Origin: Euryarchaeota archaeon UBA103
Lineage (GTDB): Archaea > Thermoplasmatota > Poseidoniia > Poseidoniales > Thalassarchaeaceae
Direction: 5' to 3'
Assembly: GCA_002506825.1 (NCBI GenBank)
Contig: DAYH01000023.1
Span: 5,593-69,592, forward strand
Length of the DNA stretch: 64,000 nucleotides
The notes below the pieces were generated by a model. The model did not search any database, was not told the origin of the DNA, and worked only from the letters and a program-made list of their open reading frames with translations. A program made the position numbers and the translations under genes. Below are positions 1,835 to 45,003 of the stretch, in pieces (the first letter of the stretch is position 1; each line of letters starts with the position of its first letter).

Positions 1835-1912
1835 TGGTGGACCCGACCGGATTTGAACCGATGACCACTCGGTTATGAGCCGAGCGCTCTAACCAACTGA
1901 GCTACGGGTCCC
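1835..1912 (-). tRNA. tRNA with CAT anticodon (elongator Met or Ile2-CAU), CCA encoded
   Basis: The reverse strand reads GGGACCCGTAGCTCAGTTGGTTAGAGCGCTCGGCTCATAACCGAGTGGTCATCGGTTCAAATCCGGTCGGGTCCACCA. It has a 7-bp acceptor stem, a GTTCAAATC T-loop and a CT-CAT-AA anticodon loop. Confidence 0.9.
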
Positions 1913-2013
1913 GTCTCCTGTGGCCGGCCATGGAGTCAAGAACCTTGCCGAAGAAAACCCTGCTAGTTTGTGAATGGGAACCATCAAGCGTCGCGCGCCC
2001 CCCCGCCCTTCAC

Positions 2014-26566: not shown

Positions 26567-26674
26567 GGTAGCCCTCAGCTAATTGGAGGCATAGGGAGTT
26601 TATGATTATCTTTGGTAGGGATTCTGCATGGGAGACCGACACACTCTTATTACTCCCAAGTTAGTCAGTGCACC

Positions 26675-27520: not shown

Positions 27521-28986
27521 GCGTCGAGAATGAGTCTCTTCCTGATTCCGTTCCAGCCAGATACCTCGCATGACACTTCGCCCTCATACCCAGTCTTCAA
27601 GACTGAATCGCCGGCATCTGATGGGACTCTGATCTCTACTGCATGTCCTGATAGCACCCCTTTCTCATAGAGAGAGGCCACTGCTGTATTCCCGCCTCTG
27701 TATCTTTCAGAAATACCGATACCGAATGTCCTTTCTACAGACGTTATCTTGATTGAAATGTCAACCAGTGTGCCAGATAGCTCCTCCTTCAATGCGTTTT
27801 GTTCTGATAACATTCGAGCTTGTGAGAAAGACTCGACCATGGAGAAAATTGTCAGAGCCTCGGGGATTGCTTGTTCGACTGTAGGCTGTTCGACCTTTGT
27901 GACCTCCGACTCAGCTTTGGAATCAGCAGTTGCCTCTTCTGGTTTTTCCCCCGTATTTGTAGTTCCTGAGTAGGTTTCATTCGTGCTTTCCGATGCGACT
28001 TTCTGTATCTGAACTTGTTCGTTTTCCTCGTTTGAGGATATAGTCGACACTCCCAAAGCACCTGCCGACAGGCCTGCGACCGCGGACGCCCCAATTACTA
28101 GATTGGAAAGTGCGATTTCCTGCAATGAGTCTGCCTTGGCCTTCCATAGCTCCCTCGCAGGGGGCTGTAAGAAGCTTGGGAGCTTTGAGATGCTTAATTC
28201 TGCCCTTTCATCCATACTTGATCTTGCTGCCTCTAATCCCGCGGCATCTGAAATATCTGAGCCCTTCATATCCCCTAGTATCTCTGAGAATTCAACGGAA
28301 ACAGAATCCATTAGATTACTCGCATTGGAACTATCGTCACTCTGACTGACAGCTGGTTCCACAAGTTCCGCCGATGGCATATCTCTGGAAGGTTGGCTTT
28401 CTTCTTCATCCCTTGCCATTCGGATTGTTATCCTACCTACTCCGACCCATCTCCTGGTTCCAATAGGTAGGCCGCCCCCAGCAGGAGGCCTTGTCCACCC
28501 GCCCCCGTAGAAATCTTGTGTTCCGTCCAATTCCCTATTGTCGAGACTCCAAGAGGGAGCTCCCCCTGACCCGGCATTATAGTAGAACAATTTGGCCGAA
28601 TTTCTATTCACGAACAATGGTTTTCCGTTCAGCTCCCCCTGTAATTCATATGAGCCATTGTAGAGGTTGTTTGGATGATCAGAAACTGTAAGAGATGACT
28701 CATTGTCGTATGACTCAGAGGGACCAGTCTCAATCAGTACGAGAATTTCCTGTAGATCAATAAATCCATTGCCATCCGAATCCAATACGGAGAAGATTGC
28801 GTTGACAATTGATGCGGGTGCCTTCTGTCCTGTTATTGACGCTAGGGCCGCCCCGAATTCATCATAGCTCAGGCTTCCATTTCCATCTAGATCGTACTTG
28901 GAGAATAATGCCTCGGAGGAAATCCCTCTGGACTTCAAAATTGTTTGTAGATTCTTAATCGCTACAGCCTCGATGCCACCATTCAA
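27514..28986 (-). CDS. EF-hand pair-containing single-TM protein, hypothetical
   Basis: Two canonical 12-residue Ca loops are present (DLDGNGSLSYDE and DSDGNGFIDLQE). A mid-protein hydrophobic helix (LVIGASAVAGLSAGALGV) and a C-terminal beta-rich domain follow. It lies 57 nt downstream of gcvT on the same strand. Confidence 0.65.
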   Translation of the reverse strand: MNGGIEAVAIKNLQTILKSRGISSEALFSKYDLDGNGSLSYDEFGAALASITGQKAPASIVNAIFSVLDSDGNGFIDLQEILVLIETGPSESYDNESSLTVSDHPNNLYNGSYELQGELNGKPLFVNRNSAKLFYYNAGSGGAPSWSLDNRELDGTQDFYGGGWTRPPAGGGLPIGTRRWVGVGRITIRMARDEEESQPSRDMPSAELVEPAVSQSDDSSNASNLMDSVSVEFSEILGDMKGSDISDAAGLEAARSSMDERAELSISKLPSFLQPPARELWKAKADSLQEIALSNLVIGASAVAGLSAGALGVSTISSNEENEQVQIQKVASESTNETYSGTTNTGEKPEEATADSKAESEVTKVEQPTVEQAIPEALTIFSMVESFSQARMLSEQNALKEELSGTLVDISIKITSVERTFGIGISERYRGGNTAVASLYEKGVLSGHAVEIRVPSDAGDSVLKTGYEGEVSCEVSGWNGIRKRLILDAQ

Positions 28987-29043
28987 GATATCGCCTCGGA
29001 TAGTGACAGAGGCTGTTCAGCAATGAGTGTTGTCACTGCGGGG

Positions 29044-30192
29044 CTACAAAAATGGTGCCTGAATGACCTCTGCCTTGATTGCCCTCCTTGGGCTTGGCCT
29101 GATCCAAACGAATTGTCCCAATACGGCCCCGGACAGGTATGCCATTGCAATACCAACTCCTCCAAGACTGGGAGATGGGGCCCCGCTAGTCACGTATCCG
29201 ATTATTTTGGCATCCTCTGAGTCTGAATCCATCACAGGATGGCCGGGCCTTGGAGATGGGCCTCTTGAAACACAACGGATTGCCGACCATTTTTCTGATT
29301 TTTTATGCGATTCGATGGTTCTTTCCCTTCCGATGAACTCATGGTCCATGTTGAGTCCGAATGGCACGGATGTTTCTGCGCTATTTCTAGACAGGAATCC
29401 TTCGGGGAGATTCGAATCAACCGATTCTCCGAGACCTGGCCAATGGAAATCCTGCCCGGACAACAGATACCCCTTCTCAAGTCTGAGAGTGTCTCTGGCG
29501 CCTAATCCAACTGGCATCAATCCCAATCTTGAACCCGCCTCTATAACCTCCCTCCATAGTAGATTTGCTTGATCGTTCGGAATAAAAATCTCTACACCTG
29601 CCTCGCCGGTATATCCCGTTCCTTGAATCCATCCCGATATCGAGAGATTGTTTTGACTAATGTCTTGGCACTTGAACCTCGCAACATTGTTTGAATGGCC
29701 CAAAACCTGTGATACTATTTCCCTAGATTTAGGACCTTGGATGGCAATGATACTTGTTTCTTCTGAGTCGTTGAGTATTTTTATCGAGCCATCACTCGGT
29801 AACAATTCAGTGAACCAGTCCAGCATTACAGATACCATTGATGCATTTGGGACTCCTAGAATCTCTTCTTCAGTTCTGATTGCAAATATCATATCATCGA
29901 TTATATTTCCATCTTCATCAAGAAAATGAGTATATCCGCAAGTACCCCTTTGAAATTTCGTAAAGTCTTGGGTCCCTATGCCAGTTAGCCACTCAGAAAC
30001 CCCTCTGCCGACAAATCTGAAAAGCCCCATATGAGATACATCGAACATCCCTGCTCCTGATCTGGTAGCCAGATGTTCCTCTTTGATGGATGAGTACCAT
30101 ATTGGAAGCTCGAATCCATGGAAATCTACCAACTTCGCCCCTGATTCAACATGTGAATTGTATAATGCCGTTCGCACAGGTGCGTTTCCCAT
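29044..30192 (-). CDS. gcvT: aminomethyltransferase (glycine cleavage T protein)
   Basis: The N-terminus RTALYNSHVESGAKLVDFHGFELPIWY and the motif MFDVSHMG are typical of GcvT. Length is 382 aa. Confidence 0.9.
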   Translation of the reverse strand: MGNAPVRTALYNSHVESGAKLVDFHGFELPIWYSSIKEEHLATRSGAGMFDVSHMGLFRFVGRGVSEWLTGIGTQDFTKFQRGTCGYTHFLDEDGNIIDDMIFAIRTEEEILGVPNASMVSVMLDWFTELLPSDGSIKILNDSEETSIIAIQGPKSREIVSQVLGHSNNVARFKCQDISQNNLSISGWIQGTGYTGEAGVEIFIPNDQANLLWREVIEAGSRLGLMPVGLGARDTLRLEKGYLLSGQDFHWPGLGESVDSNLPEGFLSRNSAETSVPFGLNMDHEFIGRERTIESHKKSEKWSAIRCVSRGPSPRPGHPVMDSDSEDAKIIGYVTSGAPSPSLGGVGIAMAYLSGAVLGQFVWIRPSPRRAIKAEVIQAPFL

Positions 30193-31504: not shown

Positions 31505-32233
31505 ATGGGTTCTTATCTTGTTGTTGGTGGCAGTAGCGATATTGGCCGTATCCTCTGCAGGAGGCTATTAGATGAAGGAAACACAGTGACGGCGATTGGG
31601 AGAGATTTCTCCCGGATGGACGATTTAGAAAATCTGGGTGCCAGAGTATACGTCGGAGATGCCTCTGACGAGCTCTTTGTTTCGGAAGTTGTGAGCAGTT
31701 TTTCCGAAGTAGGAGATGGTAAAATTGACGGTGTTGCACATTTAGTAGGTTCGCTACTAATCAGACCCCCTCATGCACTGACTTCGGAAGCATTCAATGA
31801 GGTCATCAATACCAATCTCACATCTGCATTCGTGATACTCTCCAAGGCGTGCAAGTACATGTTACGCAACGGGGGCGGAAGAATAGTGTTCACCTCAAGC
31901 GTAGCGGCAAGTGTTGGCCTGGTCAATCACGAGGCTGTCTCAGCCGCGAAAGGAGGTATTGAGTCGATGGCGAGATCTGCTGCGGCCACATATAGTAAAA
32001 GAGGGATAAGGGTGAATGTAGTAGCTCCGGGGCTTACTGACACCAGAATGGCACTTCCAATAACAAAATCCGAATCTTCTAAGGAAGCCGCGGTGAGTAA
32101 GATACCACTAAACAGAATTAATCTCCCTGAGGAGGTGTCTGATTCTATTTTTTGGTTATTGACGAATGCCCCTGACAACATCACAGGGCAGGTATTACAC
32201 CTAGATGGCGGGATGTCTCAAGTCAGGGGATAG
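31505..32233 (+). CDS. short-chain dehydrogenase/reductase family protein (catalytic Tyr position reads Val)
   Basis: The cofactor-binding motif is VVGGSSDIGRIL, with an NNAG-like region. The expected YxxxK reads AVSAAKGG. I chose the ATG at 31505; the track ORF begins at 31454. Confidence 0.7.
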   Translation: MGSYLVVGGSSDIGRILCRRLLDEGNTVTAIGRDFSRMDDLENLGARVYVGDASDELFVSEVVSSFSEVGDGKIDGVAHLVGSLLIRPPHALTSEAFNEVINTNLTSAFVILSKACKYMLRNGGGRIVFTSSVAASVGLVNHEAVSAAKGGIESMARSAAATYSKRGIRVNVVAPGLTDTRMALPITKSESSKEAAVSKIPLNRINLPEEVSDSIFWLLTNAPDNITGQVLHLDGGMSQVRG

Positions 32234-32234
32234 T

Positions 32235-32591
32235 ATGGACTGGCAGAACGCGATAAGAGCCGGAAAGCTCAGAGAAGGAAAGAGTAAGATGGTCACTGTA
32301 GGTTCAAAAATACTTATGATAGTGAATCTAGAGGGAGTCTTCCATGCCACTGAGGGACTTTGTAAACACATGAAATGGCCCTTGTCATGGGGCGGTAAGA
32401 TTGAGAATGGATGCGTAAGATGCCCCCTTCATCAGACCACCCATTGTATCTCAGACGGGAGCTTGGTCGAATGGGCGCCATTTCCCCTCTTTCCACCATA
32501 CGGGAGGCTTGTTGGTTCTATGGTCTCTAAGAAGGATCTAGGAATTTTTGAGACTCGAGTTGAGAGTGGTTATGTTCAGGTACTAATCTAA
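32235..32591 (+). CDS. small Rieske [2Fe-2S] domain protein
   Basis: The motifs CKH...(17)...CPLH match the Rieske CxH/CxxH ligand pattern. The ATG at 32235 lies directly after the SDR stop at 32233. Confidence 0.7.
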   Translation: MDWQNAIRAGKLREGKSKMVTVGSKILMIVNLEGVFHATEGLCKHMKWPLSWGGKIENGCVRCPLHQTTHCISDGSLVEWAPFPLFPPYGRLVGSMVSKKDLGIFETRVESGYVQVLI

Positions 32592-32655: not shown

Positions 32656-34575
32656 ATGATAGAGGGGGTCATGATTGATGATGAGGGAAATACCCTCTAC
32701 ACACCTGTAGATGACTCTCTGATTAACTCACCCGCCCCTACAAGATGGAAAATATGGCTATCAGCGACTGGACTGGTTTCGCTAATGATCCTGGTCTCCC
32801 TACAGGGATGGATAATTGATGATGTTGTTGACGATATCAAAAAGGAGTTGGGCATATATGATAGAGTTCCTGTTTGGGAAAGATCAGAGTGGCCTTACTT
32901 GACCAGCTACTCCAATGGTTATGTTATGGAATACGGCCAATACGATGTATTGGAGACTGAAAATGAGTGGAACTCTACACATCATTTTGTGGAGTTCGTA
33001 TTGCCCTTGAGTGAGGGGGGATCTGCTCCCAACGGCTTGGTGAGTCTCGCTATCTGGCTGCCTGATGTTCCAGAAGGGACAGAAGTCCCTGTGATTGCTG
33101 AATTCGGACCTTATTTCGACGAAGTGAGTGTTGAGACCCCGTCTATTGAAGTTCCTGGAACATGGCTTGGACAGATGATAATTGATCAGCTACTCCCGCA
33201 TGGATATGCTTTCGCGCAGGTATCCGTGATGGGAACAGGGCGGTCAAACCACTGCATGGACCTGATGGGCAATGCCGAACAATTGGGCGTGGATGCGGCT
33301 GTTACGTGGTTAGGGACTCAGGACTGGAGTAATGGCAGGGTAGCTATGATTGGGAAGTCCTATGATGGCTCTACGCCTTGGCAGGCGGCCACCTTTGGAA
33401 ATCCACATTTAGCTACTATCGTACCAATTTCAGGTTTGATAGGCGTAATGGAACTAATGTGGAAAAACGGTAGTAGCGAAGCTCGAGCGGCGATAATGCA
33501 CAATGGCGTCTACGGCTCGTACGGAATTGATGGGGATCAGGAGGATGTAGGAAATATGTGCCCAGATTATATTATTGGGCCGGGCACTGGAGTCTCAGCC
33601 TATATGTGGGGGAGTGAATTTGCAGGAACTTATTGGGAGGAGAGGTACTTCCTCGACAGAGTGCTTCAGAACTATCAGGGCTCTGTATATTTGATCCAAG
33701 GTATGCATGACTGGAACGTGGATCCACATATGGCAATCCCAGTAATCAATCAACTGAAGGATTCTGGAATTGAATCTAAAGGCCTATTTGGACAGTGGGA
33801 TCATGACTACCCGGATAGGCCAGATTATCACTTTGATCGCTCCGGAGATGGACGAGGGAGAGAGGCATATCCAGAAATGGTCCGCTTTGACTGGATGCAA
33901 GACCTATTGGAGTGGTTCGACTGGTATCTGAAGGATTTGGGAGACCAACCCGGTTTATTCGTTGAGATTCAATCGAATCAAGGACAGTGGAGGATAGAGG
34001 ATAGGTACCCTCCTGAAGGAATGGAGTCAATATCCCTAGATCTGGGAGGCGCACTTTCCAATGTTGCTGGAGGGGTGACGAATATCCTCCCCAATGGAAA
34101 TTTTGGACCTATTTATGAGAGCTCTCCCCTGACTGAAGATATTTGGATTTCTGGCCTTCCGAGACTACATATAGACGTTACAACGACGACTTTGGGAGGA
34201 CAGGTTTACGCCCTCCTAGAAGATTGCTCAGATCAAGGAGAGTGCATCCATATCGGTCACGCCATCATGGATCTGAGATATCACGAGGGAGGTTCGGAAG
34301 AGCAGGCTTGGATTCCCATTCTGGAAACAATAAATGCAAAAATGGAGTTCTTCGCAATGGATGTGCAAATCGAGACCGGTCATACCATCAGACTCTCCTT
34401 AGCGAGTACAGGCGAGGACTACCTTCCAGCGTCCACGAGCTCAATAGTGAGTGTCCAGGAAGGAGTTGGTTCTAATCTTATAATCGATATCATAGATCCG
34501 GATTCTAAGCTCCTTTTTGACCCTCCTGAATGCACCCATAGCTCGTGTTTAGAATGGTTAAACCAGACTGCGTGA
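32656..34575 (+). CDS. membrane-anchored X-Pro dipeptidyl-peptidase / CocE-NonD family (S15) serine hydrolase
   Basis: It has an N-terminal TM helix (WKIWLSATGLVSLMILVSL). The nucleophile motif is IGKSYDGSTPW (GxSYxG). Length and C-terminal beta-sandwich are typical of S15. Confidence 0.75.
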   Translation: MIEGVMIDDEGNTLYTPVDDSLINSPAPTRWKIWLSATGLVSLMILVSLQGWIIDDVVDDIKKELGIYDRVPVWERSEWPYLTSYSNGYVMEYGQYDVLETENEWNSTHHFVEFVLPLSEGGSAPNGLVSLAIWLPDVPEGTEVPVIAEFGPYFDEVSVETPSIEVPGTWLGQMIIDQLLPHGYAFAQVSVMGTGRSNHCMDLMGNAEQLGVDAAVTWLGTQDWSNGRVAMIGKSYDGSTPWQAATFGNPHLATIVPISGLIGVMELMWKNGSSEARAAIMHNGVYGSYGIDGDQEDVGNMCPDYIIGPGTGVSAYMWGSEFAGTYWEERYFLDRVLQNYQGSVYLIQGMHDWNVDPHMAIPVINQLKDSGIESKGLFGQWDHDYPDRPDYHFDRSGDGRGREAYPEMVRFDWMQDLLEWFDWYLKDLGDQPGLFVEIQSNQGQWRIEDRYPPEGMESISLDLGGALSNVAGGVTNILPNGNFGPIYESSPLTEDIWISGLPRLHIDVTTTTLGGQVYALLEDCSDQGECIHIGHAIMDLRYHEGGSEEQAWIPILETINAKMEFFAMDVQIETGHTIRLSLASTGEDYLPASTSSIVSVQEGVGSNLIIDIIDPDSKLLFDPPECTHSSCLEWLNQTA

Positions 34576-34708: not shown

Positions 34709-35305
34709 TCAGACCTGACTTGAGAGAAGCTTGGGTAACAACAAAACTATTCCCACGAGCGACATTAGAAGTACAAATCTCAACAGTGACTCATTATTTG
34801 TTTCACCCAGAACTTCTTCATCTCCTCCCACTGGTAGTTCTTGACCTGAAATATGATTATCCTCTGAGAAAGAAACAAAGAAATAACTCTCCTGCATTGA
34901 TCCGTTTACGTCGATTTGATGCTTCATTGAGACATTAGAGGGCAACAATCCGTTAGAGGGGTCTAACAGAATCAGTGATGTAACTTCACAAGATGGGTCG
35001 ATCTTCTCACCGGACTCATCGAGATCGCAGTTACTACTCAACCATGGCGTGACGATATCGTCAACCCCATCGAAAATATCATCGCCTTCAACATCCACTA
35101 AAATCCTGTGAGTGACATTTTCCCTTCCATCTACATTGTAGAAGAACAAAGAGTCGGAAGACACAAGAATTCCGGGGGAAACCCCATTGGGGGTAATGCG
35201 GTCCTCCTTCAGTAGAATTGTGTATTCTTTGGGCTCATGAGCCGATACTGGAGCTATGAGCATTAGAGAAACTAATGCCATAGCCAACCCCACCTTTGTG
35301 TTCAT
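34709..35305 (-). CDS. small secreted beta-sandwich (cupredoxin-like pattern) protein with C-terminal TM anchor; paralog of 39112..39660
   Basis: I prefer the ATG at 35305 (MNTKVGLAMALVSLMLIAPVSA/HEP). The pattern ITPNGVSPGILVSSDSLFFYNVDGRENVTH resembles the cupredoxin form F.P..i.v..Gd.v.f.N.d...H. It has a conserved Cys pair and a C-terminal helix (LLRFVLLMSLVGIVLLL). Confidence 0.6.
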   Translation of the reverse strand: MNTKVGLAMALVSLMLIAPVSAHEPKEYTILLKEDRITPNGVSPGILVSSDSLFFYNVDGRENVTHRILVDVEGDDIFDGVDDIVTPWLSSNCDLDESGEKIDPSCEVTSLILLDPSNGLLPSNVSMKHQIDVNGSMQESYFFVSFSEDNHISGQELPVGGDEEVLGETNNESLLRFVLLMSLVGIVLLLPKLLSSQV

Positions 35306-35358
35306 GTCCCTGCGTGAGGGGGCGATGGCTTCAACATGACCTACACCCTCCGGATAAT

Positions 35359-37092
35359 ATGAGCTCAGAAAGGGCGGTTGCCGCAATCGGTTTGGCGGTT
35401 TGTATCATAGCCGCAATTTTAGCTACGGCAATGCTCTCAGATAATGAGTCAACAGATTCCAGTGGAGGTGAGGAGTTGATCGATCCCTTGATCCAAACCG
35501 AGGGGCACGATCATAGGAACGCTAGCCAGCATGTGATGTTCACAGAAAACATTAGGCCAGTTAGCTACAATCCCCTAACTGCCCCTGGAAATGCGGAGAT
35601 TCAAGTCGCGGACTCTCCCGATGGCAAGAGGTATGCCTACATTGCGGGATGGTCTGAGTTGCACATCGTGGATGTCACTAACCCTGAGAATACTACGGTA
35701 ACAGGAGTGTACTACGACCCCAATACCCAAGTCCTAGATGTAAAGTACTTGCAATACAATGCTAGGGAGTACGTTATAGTTCAGAATCAATTAGTAGACC
35801 CCGGGGCCGCAGATCCAAATGTTGGTTCATGGGAAGATCCTGCTCAAGTTACAGTTACATTGGTTGATGTGACGGACAAAAGCGATCCTAGTTGGGTCGA
35901 TTCGTGGTATGATGCTGATCACCCTAGCGGACCTCATAACCTCTACACCCACATGATTGACAATGAATGGTATATATTCGTAGCCAATCCAGATTACGAG
36001 CAATGTGATGTTGGACAGGGTGACGCTTGCGGCGGAATCACAATCGCTCACCTAAACTTCGCAGGGTATGGAGACCTTCCCAGAATTGTGAAGGTAGGGG
36101 AAGCCGAAGTGAGCTGGGAGTCTACCCTAGGGGGCTGGATATACATCCATGACATGACTGTTCAGACATGGCCGGGCGAGGACCCAAATGATCCTCGTTT
36201 CGATAGAACTTTCGTGTATGGTGCATATTGGGAAGCAGGACTGAGGATTTTCGACGTTTCTGATGTTCCACACCCTGGAAATGACCTTGCTGAGTATCTG
36301 GCGATAGCGGCCGCCTGCAGGGGGTCTTTCGGCACTCAACTGGGTTGCAACTGGAGAGCTCCTGAAGTTGGCCAGTGGATGGAGTTCGAAGACTTTGATG
36401 GTGATGGGGAGATTGACTGTGGCTGTACAGGAAATGAAAATGGTGGCAGAGCCTCATATATTCACTATGCTGAGCCCATAGACGATATGGTCGATGCTAG
36501 TCATTTGGGTTACCCTGCCGGTAAGCGCCACCTCACAATAGTCGCAACCGAGGTACTCAGCACCACAGTGGGAACAGGTATGAGCTACCTACTGGACACC
36601 ACTGGCTATGAAATGAATAACGGAAATTTCAGATTCCTCCCCGAGCTTATCCACGGGTGGGAAATACCATTTGCTATGGATCACCATATTCCCGAGGGAG
36701 AAGAATGGCTCCTATTTAGCCCCCATAATGCAGATACTCAGATTTTCCAAACTGGACTACCAGGGCTTCCTGACAATAGTTTCGGTGGTGCTTGGGATGG
36801 CAGAATTTACCTGAGTAGCTATCACGCAGGACTGTGGGTCATAGATATTGAAACTCTGATGTTTGAAGGATTACAAAGCAGTAACAAGACGGAGGCTCAT
36901 ACGTCTTCGACTATCGGTTATCACCTTCCCCATGGGGCTGACGGGACTCCTCTGGATAGCTCATTCTACGACTTCGGATGGACTCCTTTCCTATGGGCGG
37001 CAGAATACCATGATGGTTACACATACCTCTCGTGCATCACAAGTGGATTGTACATTGTCCAATTGGACATTGACGCGCCCTATGGAACCTAG
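35359..37092 (+). CDS. LVIVD-repeat beta-propeller protein, N-terminal TM anchor (paralog 1)
   Basis: The ATG at 35359 gives MSSERAVAAIGLAVCIIAAILATAML. LVIVD-type repeats are present (KRYAYIAGWSELHIVDVTNPENTTVTGVYY, AYWEAGLRIFDVSD, SYHAGLWVIDIE, SGLYIVQLD). It is His-rich. Confidence 0.75.
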   Translation: MSSERAVAAIGLAVCIIAAILATAMLSDNESTDSSGGEELIDPLIQTEGHDHRNASQHVMFTENIRPVSYNPLTAPGNAEIQVADSPDGKRYAYIAGWSELHIVDVTNPENTTVTGVYYDPNTQVLDVKYLQYNAREYVIVQNQLVDPGAADPNVGSWEDPAQVTVTLVDVTDKSDPSWVDSWYDADHPSGPHNLYTHMIDNEWYIFVANPDYEQCDVGQGDACGGITIAHLNFAGYGDLPRIVKVGEAEVSWESTLGGWIYIHDMTVQTWPGEDPNDPRFDRTFVYGAYWEAGLRIFDVSDVPHPGNDLAEYLAIAAACRGSFGTQLGCNWRAPEVGQWMEFEDFDGDGEIDCGCTGNENGGRASYIHYAEPIDDMVDASHLGYPAGKRHLTIVATEVLSTTVGTGMSYLLDTTGYEMNNGNFRFLPELIHGWEIPFAMDHHIPEGEEWLLFSPHNADTQIFQTGLPGLPDNSFGGAWDGRIYLSSYHAGLWVIDIETLMFEGLQSSNKTEAHTSSTIGYHLPHGADGTPLDSSFYDFGWTPFLWAAEYHDGYTYLSCITSGLYIVQLDIDAPYGT

Positions 37093-37159
37093 ACTTCGGC
37101 CCCTATGGGGCCGGGCGTAAAGGGGGGAATTTGATAGGGTAGGTTTGTCCCGGCGTGGC

Positions 37160-39115
37160 ATGAACCTACGCCCGGTATGGCTGCTCACCGCTCTGATGAT
37201 ACTAGCACCTCTTTCTGGGTGCCTATCATTTTCCAATGATTCAGGGAGATCAGGCGATGGCAGTATGGATTGGATAGATCCTGTGACAGAAATAGAGGAT
37301 GACAATCACTCGCACAATGATTTGCTTGCACACCGTCTTGCTACTCCAAATGCAAAATTAATTGACTATCACAACCTAAATTGTGATGGAAACGTAAAGC
37401 CCCCAGCGGACTTGGACAACGTGGCAGGTAGGCCTTGTTTTGATGAATTCAAAAATGTGGGACCGACCCCCGGAGATAGCTCGGAGATAGCAATTGAAGG
37501 TAATTTTCTCGATGACTGTGAGATATATGGAGATGGTACTGGGGGGTGTTTCGCCTACGTCTCTTCATACAACCAATTTGAGATTCTAGACATTAGTAAG
37601 CCCAACGAAATTAGACTATTATCTACATACTACGCAGAAATTGCCAGAATGATCGATATCAAAGTCACGTCCGATAACAACTGGGTGCTAGTGAATCATG
37701 AATTGACTAATTCTGAGTTAGACCCGATTCCCAATGATGATGATGCCAATAGCGGTGCAAACCGACTAGATCTAATCTATGTTGGTGACAAGACTAGCCC
37801 CATAAAGGTCGCAGAATGGGATAATCCTCCAGCTGGTTTTCACAATCAAGATCTGCACGTATACTGTGATTGGGAACCTGCAAACCCCACCGCTTTATGG
37901 CAAGATGACTGTCACCTATTCCTGTTCGGCGCTGATCCCTATCCTGAAATGGTAGAAGGATCAAGTGGGACTTTCTACAAGGGAACACAGGTCTTCTACG
38001 CTCTTATTGATTTCGAGGGATTGAACCCGACAAACAACGAAGAACAACAAAATGCAAGCAGGGAAATAATCCGATGGGGCGGGTACACTCCTGAGCCGCA
38101 GACAACCTGTGGAGGATCCATATTCAACCATGACAATGTATTCTTCATCCACCCAATAACCAAGCAGAAAATGTTGGCAGTATCTTACTGGGGAGCTGGG
38201 TTGAGATTCGTTGATGTATCCGAGCCACCTCAAATTGCTGATCCTCTGGGGATTTCTTGGCCTCCTGAAACCGGACGATGGCTGGGTTGCTCCACCGATG
38301 ACTCGGGATGGTATGGTCCAGAGGGAGGGGGGCATGCCAACATGTCACCTGAAGTTTGGCTAGATGCGAATGATGGAAACGACAACATACATTATGCGGT
38401 CCCCCAGGATAATTTGATTTGCTCGGGAATTAGCGAGTATGACCCAGTGGAAACATGGCCTGATAAATGCGGAATAGGACCCTCCGATGCCACATATGGC
38501 GAGAATTGGAGGCATTACACTTACATCGCACCGGAATATGGATCTAACGCCAATCACACTGGCTACATATGGACAATTGATACCACGGACCCGGCTCAGC
38601 CTTTCCTAGTTTCCAAGTGGAAGCTACCTGGTGAAAGCACTCTTCCTGATGGAACCTCGCATCCTCACCATTACATCCCTGGAGGATATATTTTCAGTCC
38701 CCATAATGGGGATACTGGGTTGAATGGGCACGTTTACTGGACCCATTACCATGCCGGAGTTTGGATAACTGATCATGGCCACATTTGGGACGAGTTAGTT
38801 TGGGAAAATGGATATCCAGAACCGGAAAGAGGATTTCAGGCAATATCAGAGTTAGCACCATCACACACACTTGGATACTACCTACCGGCAGGACCAGATT
38901 GGATTGATGACCCTGCTAATACATTGGGTTATGACATGGCTGATTGCTGGGCTTCTTGTATGATACCTTTCGATTGGGGTCTACAATATGACCCTCGTGG
39001 TTTCGTCTTTATTTCCGAGATGGTCTCAGGAGTATATGTTGTTCAGTTCGATGAGGATTATGATTCAAGATATGACTATCCACCTCTATGGAAGGCGGAG
39101 GCTAGTGACGAATGA
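37160..39115 (+). CDS. LVIVD-repeat beta-propeller lipoprotein (paralog 2)
   Basis: The ATG at 37160 gives a signal plus lipobox (LLTALMILAPLSGC). Repeats include CFAYVSSYNQFEILDISKPNEIRLLSTYY, SYWGAGLRFVDVSE, HYHAGVWITD and SGVYVVQFD. It is colinear with 35359..37092. Confidence 0.75.
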   Translation: MNLRPVWLLTALMILAPLSGCLSFSNDSGRSGDGSMDWIDPVTEIEDDNHSHNDLLAHRLATPNAKLIDYHNLNCDGNVKPPADLDNVAGRPCFDEFKNVGPTPGDSSEIAIEGNFLDDCEIYGDGTGGCFAYVSSYNQFEILDISKPNEIRLLSTYYAEIARMIDIKVTSDNNWVLVNHELTNSELDPIPNDDDANSGANRLDLIYVGDKTSPIKVAEWDNPPAGFHNQDLHVYCDWEPANPTALWQDDCHLFLFGADPYPEMVEGSSGTFYKGTQVFYALIDFEGLNPTNNEEQQNASREIIRWGGYTPEPQTTCGGSIFNHDNVFFIHPITKQKMLAVSYWGAGLRFVDVSEPPQIADPLGISWPPETGRWLGCSTDDSGWYGPEGGGHANMSPEVWLDANDGNDNIHYAVPQDNLICSGISEYDPVETWPDKCGIGPSDATYGENWRHYTYIAPEYGSNANHTGYIWTIDTTDPAQPFLVSKWKLPGESTLPDGTSHPHHYIPGGYIFSPHNGDTGLNGHVYWTHYHAGVWITDHGHIWDELVWENGYPEPERGFQAISELAPSHTLGYYLPAGPDWIDDPANTLGYDMADCWASCMIPFDWGLQYDPRGFVFISEMVSGVYVVQFDEDYDSRYDYPPLWKAEASDE

Positions 39116-39660
39116 GATTATCTCTGAAGAGTCAATTATCAATAGCAGTAGTTTTTCTCCTTCTCATCCCCGTCGCTTCGGCACATGGAGCAAACTCATT
39201 CTCTTTCATCATGAGGAATGGATCCCTGCAACCAGAATCAGCTGAAATCGTACAGAATGATACGCTGATATTTTACAATGTGGTCGAATATGAAAGGAGT
39301 CTGGAATTAGACAAGGACGAAGATGGAGTGATGGACTACCAGTGTACTGCTTCCGGCTTTAACTCGACCAATACAGACGATGAATGTAGACTTTGGCTCG
39401 ATCCAATTAATTGGACTGCCGGAGAATATGAGATAGACATTATCTCCAATGGAAGCCTGTGGAAAACTCTGATTTTCACACTGATAGAAGATGTACATAA
39501 TGAATCTGGTCCGCCCTCTGGGTACTCCTTTGGAGACACTCCGGAAGATCAGATTCAGTCCGGGGAAGGAGTTTCTGTATCAAATGAGTTTTTACTAATT
39601 GGTGCCTTAGCGGTTGTTGGAGTTGTATTGCTTACCAGAGGGAGGGGGAAAAATGAGTAG
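39112..39660 (+). CDS. small secreted beta-sandwich (cupredoxin-like pattern) protein with C-terminal TM anchor; paralog of 34709..35305
   Basis: Its signal is LSIAVVFLLLIPVASA/HGA. The pattern LQPESAEIVQNDTLIFYNV follows, with a Cys pair (YQC...DDEC) and a C-terminal helix (LLIGALAVVGVVLL). It shares an ATGA overlap with the upstream gene. Confidence 0.6.
   Translation: MRLSLKSQLSIAVVFLLLIPVASAHGANSFSFIMRNGSLQPESAEIVQNDTLIFYNVVEYERSLELDKDEDGVMDYQCTASGFNSTNTDDECRLWLDPINWTAGEYEIDIISNGSLWKTLIFTLIEDVHNESGPPSGYSFGDTPEDQIQSGEGVSVSNEFLLIGALAVVGVVLLTRGRGKNE
39641..39648 (+). promoter_or_regulatory. Shine-Dalgarno-like element for SCO1 paralog a
   Basis: GGAGGGGG lies 4 nt upstream of the ATG at 39653, inside the 3' end of the preceding gene. 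Confidence 0.3.
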
Positions 39661-40381
39661 GATATCGGGAATTCTTCTAGCGGTGATCATAATATCGTCG
39701 GGATGTATGGGAAGTGCCGATGAGGATGTCTTCTATGGAGAAGACATTTCTCCCCCAGTTCCGGTAACTGACTTTATACTGACAGACGAAAATGGAGATT
39801 TCTTCTCACTCTCTGGGTATGAAGGAAAGGTAGTCGTAGTAACCTTCCTATTCACTAGATGTCCGGACATCTGCCCAATTGTCAGCGCAAATCTAGACTA
39901 TCTCTCTGTCATGCTTGGGGATGACTATGGGACTGAGGTTGAGATTCTTACTATTACAGTAGATCCATGGACTGACAATAGCTCAGTCTTACATCAGTAT
40001 CGTGAACAGCGAGGACTTCATTGGCCCCATCTAACTGGTTCTGTGGAAGATCTTGAAGACATATGGCTGGAATTTGATGTTGGGCTACAAACCTATGATA
40101 CCGATACTGACGGCGATGGGGTTTCAGACGGCTTCGATACCTGTTTGGAAACTCCTGAAGGAGAGGAAGTCGATAATAACGGGTGTGGTTTAGAGACCCA
40201 ACAACAAGAAGAAGATGGCGTTACTGTCAAGCATCATCCTCTGGATTACTGGGTTGATCACACCACTGGTACGATAATTCTTGACAAGGAGCTTAGGCAG
40301 CGAGTTTGGTGGGGAGATACAGATTGGAATGTCGAGCTTGCGATAGAAGATATCAAGATTCTAATGGAAGAGGAGTCTTGA
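39653..40381 (+). CDS. SCO1/SenC-family copper chaperone / thiol-disulfide oxidoreductase lipoprotein with TSP3-like insertion
   Basis: It has a lipobox (IIISSGCMG). The thioredoxin-fold motif is KVVVVTFLFTRCPDICP (CxxxC at about 39860-39874). ITVDP and a distal His (WVDHTTGTIILD) are present. An insertion reads DTDTDGDGVSDGFDTCLETPEGEEVDNNGC. Confidence 0.8.
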   Translation: MSRISGILLAVIIISSGCMGSADEDVFYGEDISPPVPVTDFILTDENGDFFSLSGYEGKVVVVTFLFTRCPDICPIVSANLDYLSVMLGDDYGTEVEILTITVDPWTDNSSVLHQYREQRGLHWPHLTGSVEDLEDIWLEFDVGLQTYDTDTDGDGVSDGFDTCLETPEGEEVDNNGCGLETQQQEEDGVTVKHHPLDYWVDHTTGTIILDKELRQRVWWGDTDWNVELAIEDIKILMEEES

Positions 40382-40382
40382 A

Positions 40383-41483
40383 ATGAGCTTCTTAAGAGTG
40401 GCGGTAGTATCCTTGATATTACTTTCCTCGGGATGTCTTGGACAAGGAGAAGGAGACCTTGAGTTTCTCGGAATAGAATACAGGGACCCTCCTGAAGCGC
40501 CAAATTTTGTTCTTTTCGACCAGAACGGAGATGTCTTTGAATTGATCGAACATGAAGGCAAGGTGATTGTTGTTGCATTCGTCTACACCGCATGTCCCGA
40601 CATATGCCTGATAATTTCTTCTAACCTAGATTACGTAAACAAGAATCTTGGAGACAAATCAGATGATGTGGTGATAATTTCAGTGACAATTGACCCGGCC
40701 AGAGACACCATCTCTCATCTATCTGAGTGGACTGATAGTAGGGGATATGAATGGTATCATCTGACAGGTCCGGTATCGACACTTCAGCAGACATACCGTT
40801 CATGGAATGTCATAATCGATAACGAACACATATCTGCAAGTCAGCCTCCTGAAAGTGAGCTTAACAGACTGGTGTTGATGTACCCAGATAATTCTAGCTC
40901 AATTCTGGAACAGAAAGGATTCGGGAAGAACGGTTCTGATTTCATATCAGAAACAATGTCCGGATCAAACATCAGTAGCGATATTGGAAATGGACCGAAT
41001 AGTTCGGGAACAATTGGCGAATGGACGTCTAACGAAGACTGGTCCTGGATTCTTCACTACTGGGACTCGGACAATGAAAGCTGGGTCACTTCTCAAGAGC
41101 CAAGCTCAACCATCAACATGGGTATTGGGACTCACCTCGCATGGATGCCAAGCAATGCTAACATCAGTATGGCCCCTCCGGGGGAGGACTGTGATGGACA
41201 TGGATGGATTATGGGTTCTGGGAGCAGTGCTCACTGTATGTGTGATGACGGATATGAAAGATCTGATGCGGACTGGCTATCATGCTTCATCGAGGGATCT
41301 ATCAGTGGTAACGACACTGGCTCGGAAGACCCACATGATGAGTCCCTTGGGGAGTATGAAGTTGGCCACTCCACCACCACATTCATTGTAGGGAAAGAGA
41401 TGAGGAAGAGGGTTGCTTACTCTGGAATATTTTGGGATGCTGATAACTTCTTGCAAGATGTAATTACCCTCGCTGATGAGTGA
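40383..41483 (+). CDS. SCO1/SenC-family lipoprotein with about 190-aa inserted domain
   Basis: It has a lipobox (LLSSGCLG). The motif KVIVVAFVYTACPDICL carries CxxxC at about 40593-40607. ISVTIDP and a distal His (EVGHSTTTFIVGKE) are present. The inserted segment between HLTG and the distal His includes CDGHGWIMGSGSSAHCMCDDGY...LSC. Confidence 0.8.
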   Translation: MSFLRVAVVSLILLSSGCLGQGEGDLEFLGIEYRDPPEAPNFVLFDQNGDVFELIEHEGKVIVVAFVYTACPDICLIISSNLDYVNKNLGDKSDDVVIISVTIDPARDTISHLSEWTDSRGYEWYHLTGPVSTLQQTYRSWNVIIDNEHISASQPPESELNRLVLMYPDNSSSILEQKGFGKNGSDFISETMSGSNISSDIGNGPNSSGTIGEWTSNEDWSWILHYWDSDNESWVTSQEPSSTINMGIGTHLAWMPSNANISMAPPGEDCDGHGWIMGSGSSAHCMCDDGYERSDADWLSCFIEGSISGNDTGSEDPHDESLGEYEVGHSTTTFIVGKEMRKRVAYSGIFWDADNFLQDVITLADE

Positions 41484-41531
41484 TTCTCACCTTTCGACAC
41501 TTTTTTCGGGTTTTTACACTGTTCCAATTAT

Positions 41532-43580
41532 ATGCTATTTCATTCACTTGGGAACATGGCAGAAGATAATGGGATGGCGAGGTCGATATTTCTCTCGGCT
41601 CTGATGGTTACTAGCGTGATGACTGGCTTACTGTTCTTCGGTATTGAAGATGAGGGTTTGAACGACTCGCCAACTATTGACTCTGATGTCCCTGACACTA
41701 TGTTGATTGGCGAGATTGAAACGGTGAATATAACAATCTCAGATGAGGAGATGGGGGGCCTGTCTGTCTTGATTACTCTGAACGGAGAGCAGGTCATGGA
41801 CCCTCTTGACGCTAATGGGGTTGTAACTTTGGATATTTCATCACTCGAAGTAGGCAGTCATGCACTTCAGGTAGTGGCCACCGATAGCCTTGGACAGGAT
41901 TCAACATGGACCAAAGTTTTCTCCATTAATTACCCCGAAGAGAGTGGGACGATAATCACTCTCTCTGCGACTGAGCTTGAGATTGTAAGAGGTGGAATAG
42001 CTCCAATTAATGGGCAGGTCCTTCATGACTCTATCGAAACTTGCTCCCTAAGGTGGTCTACTGGAGATGTCTCCGAGTCGAGCCTGGGGCTTCCAATAGG
42101 CGAAGATGGCAGTTTCGAGCTAGAACTATCCAACATACAGGATAATACTACGTTGTCTCTATCGTCGGTATGCGGGGTTTGGACTGAAAGTTCATTCTTA
42201 GTAACAACTACCATTACTGTAATCGAGGGAGTCACAGAAGGTTGTACTGATCCAAGTGCCAGTAACTATGACGAGGGCGCAGAAGAGGATGATGGATCCT
42301 GCGAATATGAAAATGAGCCTGTTCCTGAATCGGGTTGTACTGATTCAAGTGCCAGTAACTATGACGAAGGCGCAGAAGAGGATGATGGATCCTGCGAATA
42401 TGAAAATGAGCCTGTGGATAATGGAACTGGATCTCAGTCATGGTGGGAGGAAGTACTTCTTTGCGATTCTACCGAACAAGTAGAGCCCGTGGATGATTAC
42501 AATACCACGGAATCTGATAATCATCTTTGCCAATTGCGTTTTGAGATTGGAGAGACTGAGGTTGTAATCAGTTCTAATGGGATTCCTAATCATGATTTGG
42601 AGTCAGGGCCGGGTTGCTGTACCAGTGAGCAAGACCTGGAATGGAGGATTCCCCTTGTCCCCACCAACCAGACTGGGTGCGATCCTTCTATCTCTACAGA
42701 TGGATGCACGATGGCACCAGAGAGAGATGCTGTCGCCTTCGCTGTAAATGGAGTTCCCATCTTCGGACCTGAAGACGGCCCCGGAGGGGATGCAGTTGCA
42801 GGACATGAGGGGGAATATGAGGAAGATAGGCAACATATCTGGCTAGGGATATGTCACGGTCATTCAGGACCAGGTGGCGCTTATCATTACCACGCAGATG
42901 CAAATTGCGCACACTGGCACCCCGATGAAGATAGCAATCAAACATGGAGGGACTACAGTATTGACTCTTCTAGGTCCTTGTCTGAGCATTCACCTATTGT
43001 TGGATTCGCTTTTGATGGCTATCCCATATATGGATTCGTAGGCTGGGACGATGACGAGAACATATCTGAAATGAAATCATCATACCGTCTAAAGGAGGGG
43101 GAAACTGGTTACAATGGGATTGATGATTACGAGTATGTAGCAGGACTCGGCGATCTAGACTCTTGTAATGGGCACTTTGGACCCACTCCAGATTACCCCG
43201 AAGGAGTATACCACTATCATACCACATGGGAGAATGGAGAGGGAGAGATTGGATTCCCCTATTTCATCAACTGCTACAGGGGCGAAGTATCCCTAGGAAG
43301 CGAGAATGGAGGAGGGGATGATGGGGTCGATTGCTCGGGACATGGAGATACATGGGGGCCGGGCATAGGCCCTCCTCCAGAAGGATGCGGAGGTGGCCCC
43401 CAGGGCCAGTCTTCCGACTTTTCTACAGCATTCGGAGCCATACATCGAATTGCCCCCCCTAGTGGAGGCATGTTAGCATTGATGCTACTGGGAGTTGTTT
43501 TTGTCAGAGTATTGGCATTTGCCCCAGTTTCTCCAAGTCGGGCTGGTATAATTGCCTTATATCGTCAAGCTCAAGTATGA
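41532..43580 (+). CDS. membrane-anchored Ig-like-repeat protein with C-terminal YHYH domain
   Basis: An N-terminal TM helix is followed by Ig-like segments and a duplicated Cys-bounded acidic linker. Two half-domains follow, ICHGHSGPGGAYHYHADANCAHWH (YHYH at about 42882-42893) and CNGHFGPTPDYPEGVYHYHTT..FPYFINCYRG (about 43209-43220). It ends in a C-terminal hydrophobic helix. The start could also be 41556 or 41574. Confidence 0.7.
   Translation: MLFHSLGNMAEDNGMARSIFLSALMVTSVMTGLLFFGIEDEGLNDSPTIDSDVPDTMLIGEIETVNITISDEEMGGLSVLITLNGEQVMDPLDANGVVTLDISSLEVGSHALQVVATDSLGQDSTWTKVFSINYPEESGTIITLSATELEIVRGGIAPINGQVLHDSIETCSLRWSTGDVSESSLGLPIGEDGSFELELSNIQDNTTLSLSSVCGVWTESSFLVTTTITVIEGVTEGCTDPSASNYDEGAEEDDGSCEYENEPVPESGCTDSSASNYDEGAEEDDGSCEYENEPVDNGTGSQSWWEEVLLCDSTEQVEPVDDYNTTESDNHLCQLRFEIGETEVVISSNGIPNHDLESGPGCCTSEQDLEWRIPLVPTNQTGCDPSISTDGCTMAPERDAVAFAVNGVPIFGPEDGPGGDAVAGHEGEYEEDRQHIWLGICHGHSGPGGAYHYHADANCAHWHPDEDSNQTWRDYSIDSSRSLSEHSPIVGFAFDGYPIYGFVGWDDDENISEMKSSYRLKEGETGYNGIDDYEYVAGLGDLDSCNGHFGPTPDYPEGVYHYHTTWENGEGEIGFPYFINCYRGEVSLGSENGGGDDGVDCSGHGDTWGPGIGPPPEGCGGGPQGQSSDFSTAFGAIHRIAPPSGGMLALMLLGVVFVRVLAFAPVSPSRAGIIALYRQAQV
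42240..42415 (+). repeat. near-perfect 93-bp tandem duplication inside the YHYH gene
   Basis: Copy 1 runs from about 42240 and copy 2 from about 42333. Both encode GCTD(P/S)SASNYDEGAEEDDGSCEYENEPV, and only a few nucleotide differences were seen by eye. Confidence 0.85.
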
Positions 43581-45003
43581 GCATTGCTAGCCTCTCTAGG
43601 CCCATGCCCCATGCACATACTGGCCATTCTGTGCCCAATGGCTCAGTTACTTCTGGGCGGAAAATTCCTGCCCCTCCAAGCTCAAGCCACTCGCCCCTCC
43701 AAAGAATGTCCACTTCAACACTAGGCTCAGTATATGGGAAGTAAGCCGGCCTTACTCTGACGTCACCGTATCCCATCTTGGAATAGAAAGTTTTGAGTGT
43801 CGTTATTAGCATTGGAAGATTGGCGTTTTCTTCGTGAATGATTCCTTCGATCTGGTGAAACTCTGGTAAATGAGTTCGGTCTATGGTTTCTTGTCTGAAT
43901 ACTCTTCCAATTCCAAAAACTCTTGAGGGCTCGCCTGGATTCTCTGCGATGTGCCTGACGGTATTCACAGTAGTGTGCGTCCTGAGAAGTCCCTTCTGGG
44001 CCTCTTCCCTATCGAATCTCCCTCCCCATCCCCTGCTTCCGGTATCGTGACCATGCTCGTGGACCTTCGACCATAAATCGAGATATTCTTCTCTGACCTC
44101 TACTTTTTCTGGGCTCGAGAGATAGAATGTGTCCTGCATTGTTCTTGCAGGATGAGATTGGGGTATGTACAATGCATCCATATTCCAACCTGCTGATTGT
44201 ACGAAATTTCCCTCTATCTCGGAGAATCCCATTTCCAAGAAGACCTTTCTGATTCTTTCAATCAGGGCTTGCATGGGATGGGGCCTGCCGCCAGTAGGAG
44301 TTACAGTTGGTGCGTTGACATCGAAGGGCTTGAACTTGGCACCCCTCCAACTGTCCCCTTGTAAGAGCTCTGTGGTCACCTCCCCGATCATCTCAACATG
44401 GGATAGTAGTTCACTGTCTACTAATGCTCCCTCCTCGGTCAGAGACCATGTTCGGGAAACTTGGACGTCTACAGAAATTAGGCCCTTCCTACTCGAGAAG
44501 TGCCGTATAAGTTGTGCACTCAGTTCTGAATCTTCGACACCGCGATTTGAAATCTTAGAAATAAAATCCTGTCTCTCGGAAATTATAGATGCTATAGCCC
44601 CTTCATCATCGACGACTAGATTGCCAGACTCTAGTGTCATCCCAATTGATTTCAGAAGTCCTATTCCTGGTCCTGCTTCGTTTCTCTGAAACCCTGCTTG
44701 GAAAAGATCCTCCATATTCCTCTTATCCTCATCGGACCCGATGTACCATTTCCAAATTCTTTCCTCTAGTAGCCCGTGTTCAAGTGCTTTTTTTCCCTCT
44801 GAGTCTAATGAAATAGTCCTAATTTGAGTTTCAGATACAGTGACTAGTCCCAATTCCGACAATGATTGACCAGAACCGGCTACGTGGACTTGATCATTCC
44901 ATCCTGTTGACTCAAGTAGTTCCTTGATTGCCCATTCTCTACTTGGATCGGTAAGCATGGCCCTGAGCATGGCTCTGTCATTATTGCTCAAATCCACAGT
45001 CAT
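43504..45003 (-). CDS. pheS: phenylalanine--tRNA ligase alpha subunit (archaeal type)
   Basis: The 499-aa protein has N-terminal winged-helix repeats. Its class II core motifs include HPARTMQDTFY, LLRTHTT and GAGIFRPEV..WGMGLERL. Confidence 0.9.
   Translation of the reverse strand: MTVDLSNNDRAMLRAMLTDPSREWAIKELLESTGWNDQVHVAGSGQSLSELGLVTVSETQIRTISLDSEGKKALEHGLLEERIWKWYIGSDEDKRNMEDLFQAGFQRNEAGPGIGLLKSIGMTLESGNLVVDDEGAIASIISERQDFISKISNRGVEDSELSAQLIRHFSSRKGLISVDVQVSRTWSLTEEGALVDSELLSHVEMIGEVTTELLQGDSWRGAKFKPFDVNAPTVTPTGGRPHPMQALIERIRKVFLEMGFSEIEGNFVQSAGWNMDALYIPQSHPARTMQDTFYLSSPEKVEVREEYLDLWSKVHEHGHDTGSRGWGGRFDREEAQKGLLRTHTTVNTVRHIAENPGEPSRVFGIGRVFRQETIDRTHLPEFHQIEGIIHEENANLPMLITTLKTFYSKMGYGDVRVRPAYFPYTEPSVEVDILWRGEWLELGGAGIFRPEVTEPLGTEWPVCAWGMGLERLAMLILELDDIRQLYQPDLEKLGQMPIL

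Follow-up and report, generated by a model that had tools for sequence, protein, structure and literature searches.

In several described systems, a β-propeller protein is encoded beside copper chaperones. Methanethiol oxidase (MTO), of the SBP56 family, is a copper-dependent propeller, and its gene lies in an mtoX-SCO1/senC-mauG operon. Thiocyanate dehydrogenase (TcDH) and the CuZ domain of N2O reductase each form a propeller of seven blades whose central tunnel holds a multi-copper centre, and the gene cluster for TcDH carries copCD. In the mnxG operon of Pseudomonas putida GB-1, the gene for a β-propeller repeat protein is followed by two SCO1/SenC genes. Another described propeller is Sb-PTE, the haloalkylphosphorus hydrolase of Sphingobium sp. 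TCM1 (Protein Data Bank (PDB) entries 5hrm and 5ioj), which is a soluble bacterial Mn hydrolase of xenobiotic triesters. Here we describe a cluster of seven genes, lettered A to G in order, in a 64,000-nucleotide stretch of the genome of Euryarchaeota archaeon UBA103 (“the window”; all position numbers refer to it unless another locus is named). The cluster encodes two propellers with LVIVD repeats (B and C), two small proteins (A and D), two SCO1/SenC proteins (E and F), and a protein with a YHYH domain (G). Our main finding is that B and C are homologous to Sb-PTE, and we think it quite probable that they are enzymes with a metal site and belong to the lineage of Sb-PTE. The genes, and an element between A and B, are arranged as follows:

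34709-35305, minus strand: gene A, with an ATG start (the longest open reading frame, or ORF, reaches 35386); divergent from B
35321-35339, no strand assigned: GCGATGGCTTCAACATGAC, an intergenic element between A and B and a candidate shared promoter or operator
35359-37092, plus strand: gene B, a 577-amino-acid LVIVD propeller with an N-terminal transmembrane (TM) anchor
37160-39115, plus strand: gene C, an LVIVD propeller lipoprotein of about 650 amino acids with an LSGC lipobox
39112-39660, plus strand: gene D, a paralog of A, with an ATGA overlap between its start and the stop of C
39653-40381, plus strand: gene E, a SCO1/SenC lipoprotein, with an 8-nucleotide overlap with D
40383-41483, plus strand: gene F, a SCO1/SenC lipoprotein, after a 1-nucleotide gap from E
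41532-43580, plus strand: gene G, a YHYH-domain protein, after a 48-nucleotide gap from F

A sequence-only reading of the window had proposed these seven genes with their coordinates and tight spacings, and our ORF map agrees with it. Its domain assignments were also correct: each match was above the Pfam cutoff. For LVIVD (PF08309), the scores were 32.8 bits for B (E = 4.2e-8) and 21.5 bits for C (E = 1.4e-4), against a cutoff of 20.2. For SCO1-SenC (PF02630), E and F both scored 84-85 bits (E = 9.6e-24 and 6.5e-24, respectively). For YHYH (PF14240), G scored 127 bits (E = 1.2e-36). The three pairs of paralogs that had been proposed are B and C (24% identity, E = 1e-33), A and D (26% identity, E = 2e-8), and E and F (42% identity, E = 3e-35), and all three are real. 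Finally, all of the products were said to be extracytoplasmic. We assigned export signals by eye (LSGC or SSGC lipoboxes, AxA sites, or TM segments), and by these signals all of the products of the cluster are exported; all are also rich in histidine.

The histidine motifs that had been noticed in both propellers are indeed common to B and C, and they were retained in alignments of 29 and of 61 sequences. Because the mean column identity in these alignments was just 21-22%, the motifs are conserved far beyond what would be expected by chance. In B, the putative ligands are H50, H52, H58, D127, H193, H264 (next to D265), H369, E398, H456, and H489. The conserved set in C mirrors that in B (H51, H53, H59, D167, H229, H325-D326, H412, E460, H516, and H532). 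In the 61 aligned sequences, and using the numbering of B, H193, D265, H369, E398, H456, and H489 were invariant (61/61), and H50, H52, and H58 were each present in 60. Position 127 was always acidic (57 Asp and 4 Glu). H264 was less conserved (His in 51 of 61).

We used AlphaFold 2 (AF2) and the 61-sequence alignment to model the structure of B. The model is a seven-bladed propeller (pLDDT 82.9, pTM 0.86): according to DSSP, it has 28 strands, which form seven groups of four. As read from the DSSP list, D127, H193, H264, H369, and H456 each open one strand in five consecutive blades, and E398 and H489 lie just past the following strand. The N-terminal HxHx5H segment was modelled with pLDDT of 73-85. 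In the model, this is the pattern that would be expected if the conserved residues were ligands that line one mouth of the central channel.

When we compared the model of B to known structures using Foldseek, all of the matches were propellers, and the top match in the PDB was 5hrm, which is Sb-PTE (E = 1.5e-11, TM-scores of 0.47/0.54). Similarly, when a profile of the propeller family was compared to the PDB, the only matches were 5hrm and 5ioj (E = 4.1e-19). An alignment of the B family to Sb-PTE with hhalign had a probability of 96.8% in local mode and 98.7% in global mode. Sb-PTE itself scores just under the Pfam cutoff for LVIVD. The sequence-only reading had described the LVIVD family as having no assigned function, and this needs to be corrected: among proteins of solved structure, the closest relative has been characterised as a phosphotriesterase that depends on Mn.

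In Sb-PTE, Glu201 reportedly bridges the two Mn ions, and the other ligands are said to be His258 and His317 along with His389, Glu407, and His475. In 5ioj, the residues at positions 258, 317, 389, 407, and 475 are H, H, H, E, and H, which fits this list. To map the site onto B, we relied on two alignments, from hmmalign (with the A4 profile) and from hhalign, which agree on a single full-length collinear register. In this register, H193 of B aligns with H258 of Sb-PTE, H264 (with D265) aligns with H317 (with E318), H369 aligns with H389, and E398 aligns with E407. D127 falls at most two residues from E201, in a stretch of Sb-PTE that is masked in the alignment. H456 shares its blade with H475, which is within an insertion in Sb-PTE. 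H489 and the three N-terminal histidines of B have no counterpart. (HMMER's local domains on 5hrm fell in several repeat registers, so they cannot fix the mapping of the ligands by themselves. An alignment by hmmalign with the A3 profile was partial and out of register, and it was dropped in favor of the collinear one.) Judging from the aligned residues, the core of the Sb-PTE site appears to be conserved across the propeller family, with four invariant histidines in addition. Sb-PTE and B share the seven-bladed fold, but they are just 17% identical or so, and Sb-PTE lacks both H489 and the N-terminal HxHx5H. Also, the papers on Sb-PTE that we consulted do not mention any chaperone genes, while candidates for such genes are part of the B/C cluster in the group of archaea that we describe below.

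The copper-dependent propellers are less similar to B and C. TcDH and the CuZ domain of N2O reductase have seven blades, as B and C do, but B had no PDB profile match to either of them, and neither was among the best 50 Foldseek matches. The likeness is one of architecture and gene context, and in functional terms these proteins offer an analogy to a propeller that has eight histidines plus acidic ligands and is encoded beside copper chaperones. The sequence-only reading pointed out that the gene for MTO adjoins SCO1, which the literature confirms. However, MTO belongs to another propeller family, for which we detected no homology to B; MTO has four conserved histidines, and our cluster does not include mauG. 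(There are hints that the LVIVD and SBP56 propellers are related at the level of profiles. For some long generic LVIVD proteins, the precomputed matches also include PF05694, which is the SBP56 family, and PF09826.) In the mnxG operon, the copper enzyme is the multicopper oxidase MnxG, while no multicopper oxidase was found in the ORFs of the window that we scanned, and the propeller is of the YVTN type. Overall, these precedents place a propeller beside copper chaperones, but none of them was homologous to B or C in the tests that we ran.

The family of histidine-rich propellers is narrow. We searched 1.84 billion representative proteins with a profile of the family, and 36 proteins had E below 1e-30. 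The members are from Thermoplasmatota and Halobacteria. (A query that was built from a mixed alignment found only the abundant orthologs from Marine Group IIb archaea, or MGIIb, while a query that was built from the distant members alone found distant homologs.) The full-length relatives from outside of the Poseidoniales have about 470-500 amino acids and are lipoproteins with an LAGC lipobox, and those whose source is named are from Thermoplasmatota. There are also homologs with Tat signals on megaplasmids of Haladaptatus (Halobacteria), at 9013-10614 of locus L167 and at 8911-10512 of locus L168, which are annotated as “hypothetical protein.” In two species of Haladaptatus, the propeller gene is directly after a gene for an S8 serine peptidase. 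The genes for the other distant homologs stand alone, and their neighbors are not conserved. For one of them (in locus L083), we considered whether the neighboring genes might be a Sco and small-protein pair, but one of them encodes a thioredoxin-like protein with WCGPC, and the product of the other has no N-terminal histidine.

The small proteins A and D share features that might allow them to bind metal. Protein A has an AxA signal, and its mature form is predicted to begin with HEPKEY. Mature A has an invariant H44, a pair of cysteines, and D127-x-H129, and the C-terminal part is a linker and then a TM anchor. The predicted mature form of D begins with HGA and has a pair of cysteines, D103-x-H105, and a C-terminal TM anchor. 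Wherever the signal junction of an ortholog could be located, the predicted AxA cleavage site was followed by His (101/101 orthologs of A and 95/95 orthologs of D). A few orthologs were missed by our regular expression, and by eye, these have the same AxA-H junction. Both D127 and H129 are present in 99 of 101 orthologs of A, and both D103 and H105 are present in 94 of 95 orthologs of D. In a joint alignment of A and D, just two columns are invariant, namely H1 and H105 (numbered as in D). Both proteins also have Asp, or Asn-Asp, at positions 26-29.

These features resemble those of CopC. PfCopC binds Cu(II) via His1, Asp83, and His85, and it has a conserved Glu27 near its N-terminus. Like CopC, A and D are small exported proteins with an N-terminal His in the mature form and a distal Asp-x-His, so at the level of motifs, they match the CopC-type set of Cu(II) ligands. 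The acidic or amide residue near positions 26-29 is comparable to Glu27. Unlike in CopC, the domain of A and D ends with the D-x-H, and both proteins carry a cysteine pair and a C-terminal TM anchor. Histidine-brace relatives of CopC (CopC itself, YcnI, and X325) are mostly involved in copper trafficking and are encoded beside other copper genes.

E and F retain the CxxxC and the distal His of SCO1/SenC proteins. In E, these are C70-x3-C74 and H203, and in F, these are C71-x3-C75 and H329. Each of these residues is conserved in at least 97% of the orthologs (n = 86 for E and 78 for F). Unlike typical SCO1/SenC proteins, both have large insertions between the core and the strand that bears the His. 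The insert in E is rich in Asp, resembles thrombospondin type 3 (TSP3) repeats, which are of a calcium-binding type, and includes a pair of cysteines. The insert in F is about 170 amino acids (residues 150-320 or so), with conserved C270, W275, M277, H284-C285-M286-C287, C301, and H318. From these residues, it may be an additional metal site of the Cu(I) type or else a disulfide-knot domain.

In contrast to the SCO1 genes that are linked to CuA assembly, E and F are not next to cox genes, and the SCO genes never adjoin cox genes in the loci that we examined. Signature motifs of COX1 or COX2 were absent from the window and from 2.2 Mb of flanking sequence from about 165 related loci. Similarly, a Pfam scan of 43 of the 48 ORFs in the window that encode at least 110 amino acids did not find any cox, nos, or multicopper oxidase domain. 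The same scan of the window found no permease or P-type ATPase. As far as the scanned ORFs show, the sequence-only reading was correct that the window has no gene for one of those oxidases to account for the SCO1 pair, and a usual linkage of these SCO genes to cox, which it had named as a possible objection, was not seen in these loci.

To see if the cluster is conserved, we compared the 80 best genome loci and 80 metagenome loci. All 80 of the genome loci, like the window itself, are from the Poseidoniales/Thalassarchaeaceae, which correspond to MGIIb. (B is 99% identical to a protein from another metagenome-assembled genome, “Euryarchaeota archaeon UBA170.”) Gene order is conserved, as had been predicted for relatives: the order A (reverse strand), B, C, D, E, F, sometimes G, and then PheRS (reverse strand) recurs in about 100 related loci from MGIIb. 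Of the 85 loci that have a complete interval from C to PheRS, 78 have D and at least two Sco genes, with A through F in order and the genes overlapping or abutting. G varies much more. Of those 85 loci, 41 encode the YHYH domain, 21 retain just the N-terminal part of G, and 23 have no G. G is an accessory and optional part of the cluster.

Outside of the loci of the MGIIb type, the pair of Sco genes was not seen. In one lineage of Poseidoniales (L114-L121), A, B, and C are present without D, E, and F, and the YHYH protein is encoded directly after C (as in L119). In another divergent lineage (L087 and L088), the A-B divergent pair is retained, 2 kb away from C. In many other Poseidoniales loci, C is alone, between the genes for an asparaginase and an FMN reductase. 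(In L125, at 8087-11354, and in L087, at 996-3403, an Asparaginase_2 gene precedes the propeller gene, and a gene for an NADPH-dependent FMN reductase follows it, with a 2-nucleotide gap or a 4-nucleotide overlap.) From the divergent Poseidoniales loci, we conclude that the stable units are a propeller with a small protein, and that the SCO pair is specific to a lineage. Thus, the proposal of a self-contained module of seven genes was partly right: A through F form a conserved cluster in MGIIb, but the YHYH domain is present in fewer than half of the complete loci, and the linkage to the SCO genes is lineage-specific.

PheRS is as syntenic as the genes of the cluster, so the conservation of gene order within one family is by itself weak evidence for a shared function. 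In two loci with distant homologs from Thermoplasmatota (L082 and L084), genes for PheRS or for glycine cleavage are also close by. In the window, genes for glycine cleavage (23697-30192) and for PheRS-alpha (43504-45003) are near the propeller genes as well. This suggests that the propeller has an old and vertically inherited position in the genome, that the chaperone genes were added there, and that the glycine cleavage and PheRS neighbors are relic synteny.

How might the cluster work? B and C would be membrane-tethered, extracytoplasmic, seven-bladed metalloenzymes. Their central channel would hold a carboxylate-bridged site for two metals, homologous to the site of Sb-PTE. D127 would bridge the metals, H193 and H264 would bind one of them, and H369, E398, and H456 would bind the other. 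H489 and the N-terminal H-x-H-x5-H would extend the site, either as a cap or by binding an additional metal. In MGIIb, each propeller would be supplied with metal by a small tethered protein (A for B and D for C), whose processed N-terminal His and D-x-H would form a CopC-like metal site, most likely for Cu(II). The two Sco-type lipoproteins (with CxxxC...H) would complete a relay for metal delivery or thiol redox. The metal would most likely be copper, and at the cell surface, the enzymes would most likely oxidise or hydrolyse a small dissolved substrate. Overall, a pair of surface metalloenzymes with dedicated metal-handling partners is our best explanation of the cluster as a whole, but we put it forward tentatively, as not quite an even bet.

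The fold (in the model), the homology to Sb-PTE, the conservation of the residues, and the linkage of the genes are observations, while metal binding, copper, the relay, and catalysis are inferences. The sequence-only reading had proposed an unknown metalloenzyme that was probably dependent on copper. The first part of this proposal is strengthened by the alignment of the conserved residues with the metal site of Sb-PTE. The second part draws on gene context and on ligand motifs, which make copper plausible for B and C. In particular, the invariant N-terminal His and D-x-H of A and D favor a metal relay. We consider it about a toss-up that the metal is copper and is delivered by A, D, E, and F. 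A bolder idea, which we think is rather unlikely, is that B and C are the first members of a class of copper enzymes, with multinuclear centres, that has not been described before. In this scenario, a centre with eight histidines and two carboxylates would have arisen from a two-metal site like that of Sb-PTE in an LVIVD propeller, it would be matured by a new family of membrane-tethered histidine-brace metallochaperones (A and D) and by two modified Sco proteins, and it would oxidise a dissolved substrate on the surface of abundant planktonic marine archaea.

Several observations weigh against a copper-dependent enzyme pair with its own metal-handling partners. The closest solved relative of B uses Mn and is a hydrolase. 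Several lineages of Poseidoniales lack the SCO pair, or lack D, beside the propellers, and the distant homologs from other Thermoplasmatota and from Haladaptatus do not have copper genes nearby. Cells of MGIIb strongly express halocyanin, which is a cuproprotein that the chaperones could serve instead. An N-terminal His is not specific to copper, as DUF4198 binds Ni. When we compared A and D to Pfam and to profiles from the PDB, no family matched, including CopC (PF04234), and an AF2 model of D from an alignment of two sequences was unusable (pLDDT 41), so we do not classify A and D as members of the CopC family, and we say only that they might work like CopC. As for the metal site, the convergence of the histidines on the channel is a reading of the list of strands rather than of model coordinates, and the reported ligand list for Sb-PTE was checked for residue type only.

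Because the closest solved relative is a Mn phosphotriesterase, a hydrolase that does not use copper is a serious rival. Specifically, B and C might be binuclear surface hydrolases of the Sb-PTE type (with Mn, Zn, Fe, or Co) that act on, for example, phosphoesters or on esters or amides, so as to scavenge nutrients. The Sco proteins and the proteins with N-terminal His would then be general copper or thiol factors for respiration and for halocyanins, and they would be adjacent in MGIIb only because of inherited synteny. The ligand positions of Sb-PTE appear to be conserved. The family members outside of MGIIb lack copper genes, and their genes either stand alone or come after a gene for an S8 peptidase. 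Also, there is a gene for an S15 peptidase just upstream of the cluster in the window, MGIIb has other clients for copper, and the genes for PheRS and glycine cleavage (gcv) are syntenic across Thermoplasmatota too, so synteny alone does not prove a shared function. On the other hand, the four extra invariant histidines are absent from Sb-PTE or have no match in it. The pairings are also specific: the divergent A-B pair persists in a distant lineage, and the stop of C consistently overlaps the start of D. The 8-nucleotide overlap of D and E and the 1-nucleotide gap between E and F suggest that these genes are co-translated as one unit, and the two Sco proteins and the two proteins with N-terminal His mirror the two propellers. 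All in all, we judge this explanation to be less likely than not, and it is the main rival.

A different possibility is that the cluster is an island for copper acquisition or homeostasis. The CopC-like and Sco proteins would capture copper and pass it along at the surface, and the propellers and the YHYH protein would bind, buffer, or receive the metal instead of being enzymes. This would fit with every product being exported and rich in histidine, with the roles of the histidine-brace relatives, most of which are in copper transport, and with “Anglerase”-type proteins, which have an N-terminal His and capture metals. However, the conserved residues appear, from the model, to reproduce the geometry of a catalytic binuclear site and not a surface patch of histidines. 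Furthermore, the propeller family is widespread without copper genes, and no permease or P-type ATPase was found in the window ORFs that we scanned. We view such an island as improbable. A further explanation, in which B and C would have no catalytic role and be surface or adhesion proteins, with the other genes adjacent incidentally, is very improbable. The literature does treat the LVIVD repeat as a cell-surface or attachment module, but the invariant His, Asp, and Glu persist at 21-22% identity, the family is homologous to an enzyme with an active site there, and the operon-like arrangement is conserved. We rejected the adhesin-only explanation, along with chance adjacency, on these grounds.

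The spacer between the divergent genes A and B is 53 nucleotides and contains GCGATGGCTTCAACATGAC, a candidate promoter or operator. Across 97 distinct loci, the core of this element is at least 90% conserved, while the identity of protein A falls to around 40%. We also considered whether it was a motif with multiple copies in the window, but no other copy stood out above chance, and this idea was dropped.

G is a membrane-anchored protein with Ig-like domains. Its match to YHYH covers the full length of the model (residues 370-584), and what had looked like a double domain is a single Pfam domain that holds two internal GH...YHYH halves. In the literature, YHYH is called enigmatic, with a predicted Zn-hydrolase site. 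At about residues 238-292 (42250-42420), G has two tandem repeats of the form CTD..NYDEGAEEDDGSCEYE, which can also be written as CTD(P/S)SASNYDEGAEEDDGSCEYENEPV. In a comparison of this repeat to the PDB, the only similarity was a weak one (E = 0.95), to part of macrophage-expressed gene 1 protein. G (plus strand) and PheRS-alpha (minus strand) are convergent, and they overlap at their 3' ends by 77 nucleotides (43504-43580), across the part of G that encodes its C-terminal TM tail.

The other neighbors of the cluster in the window are housekeeping genes (for glycine cleavage, SHMT, FolD, SufS/E, and PheRS) and genes for secreted hydrolases. The gene for the S15 peptidase, which is an X-Pro dipeptidyl-peptidase, is at 32656-34575, and upstream of it is a gene for a small Rieske [2Fe-2S] protein (128 amino acids; 32205-32591). 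Farther away are genes for a 1341-amino-acid M60-like peptidase with Ig domains (13415-17440) and for a 1007-amino-acid PLD-like protein with lamin-tail domains (8057-11080). The large hydrolase genes fit with a lifestyle of degrading proteins and lipids.

In the literature, we did not find a description of this cluster, of the family of histidine-rich propellers, or of the A/D family, and the papers that mention “LVIVD” were not relevant. Our analysis defines two families that had not been annotated: the histidine-rich propellers of Thermoplasmatota and Halobacteria, which are related to a phosphotriesterase without a described natural role, and the small proteins A and D, with their N-terminal His. 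The cluster, which is conserved in each locus of the MGIIb type that we examined, is a candidate for an extracellular metalloenzyme in the uncultured Marine Group II archaea, for which much of the surface proteome is unannotated. The homologs in Haladaptatus are from organisms that have been cultured and offer an experimental entry point. If the enzymes are hydrolases, then they would hint at what the Sb-PTE fold does in nature. Should the metal be copper, the cluster would tie archaeal heterotrophy to the availability of copper in the ocean, and it would represent a new type of copper centre.

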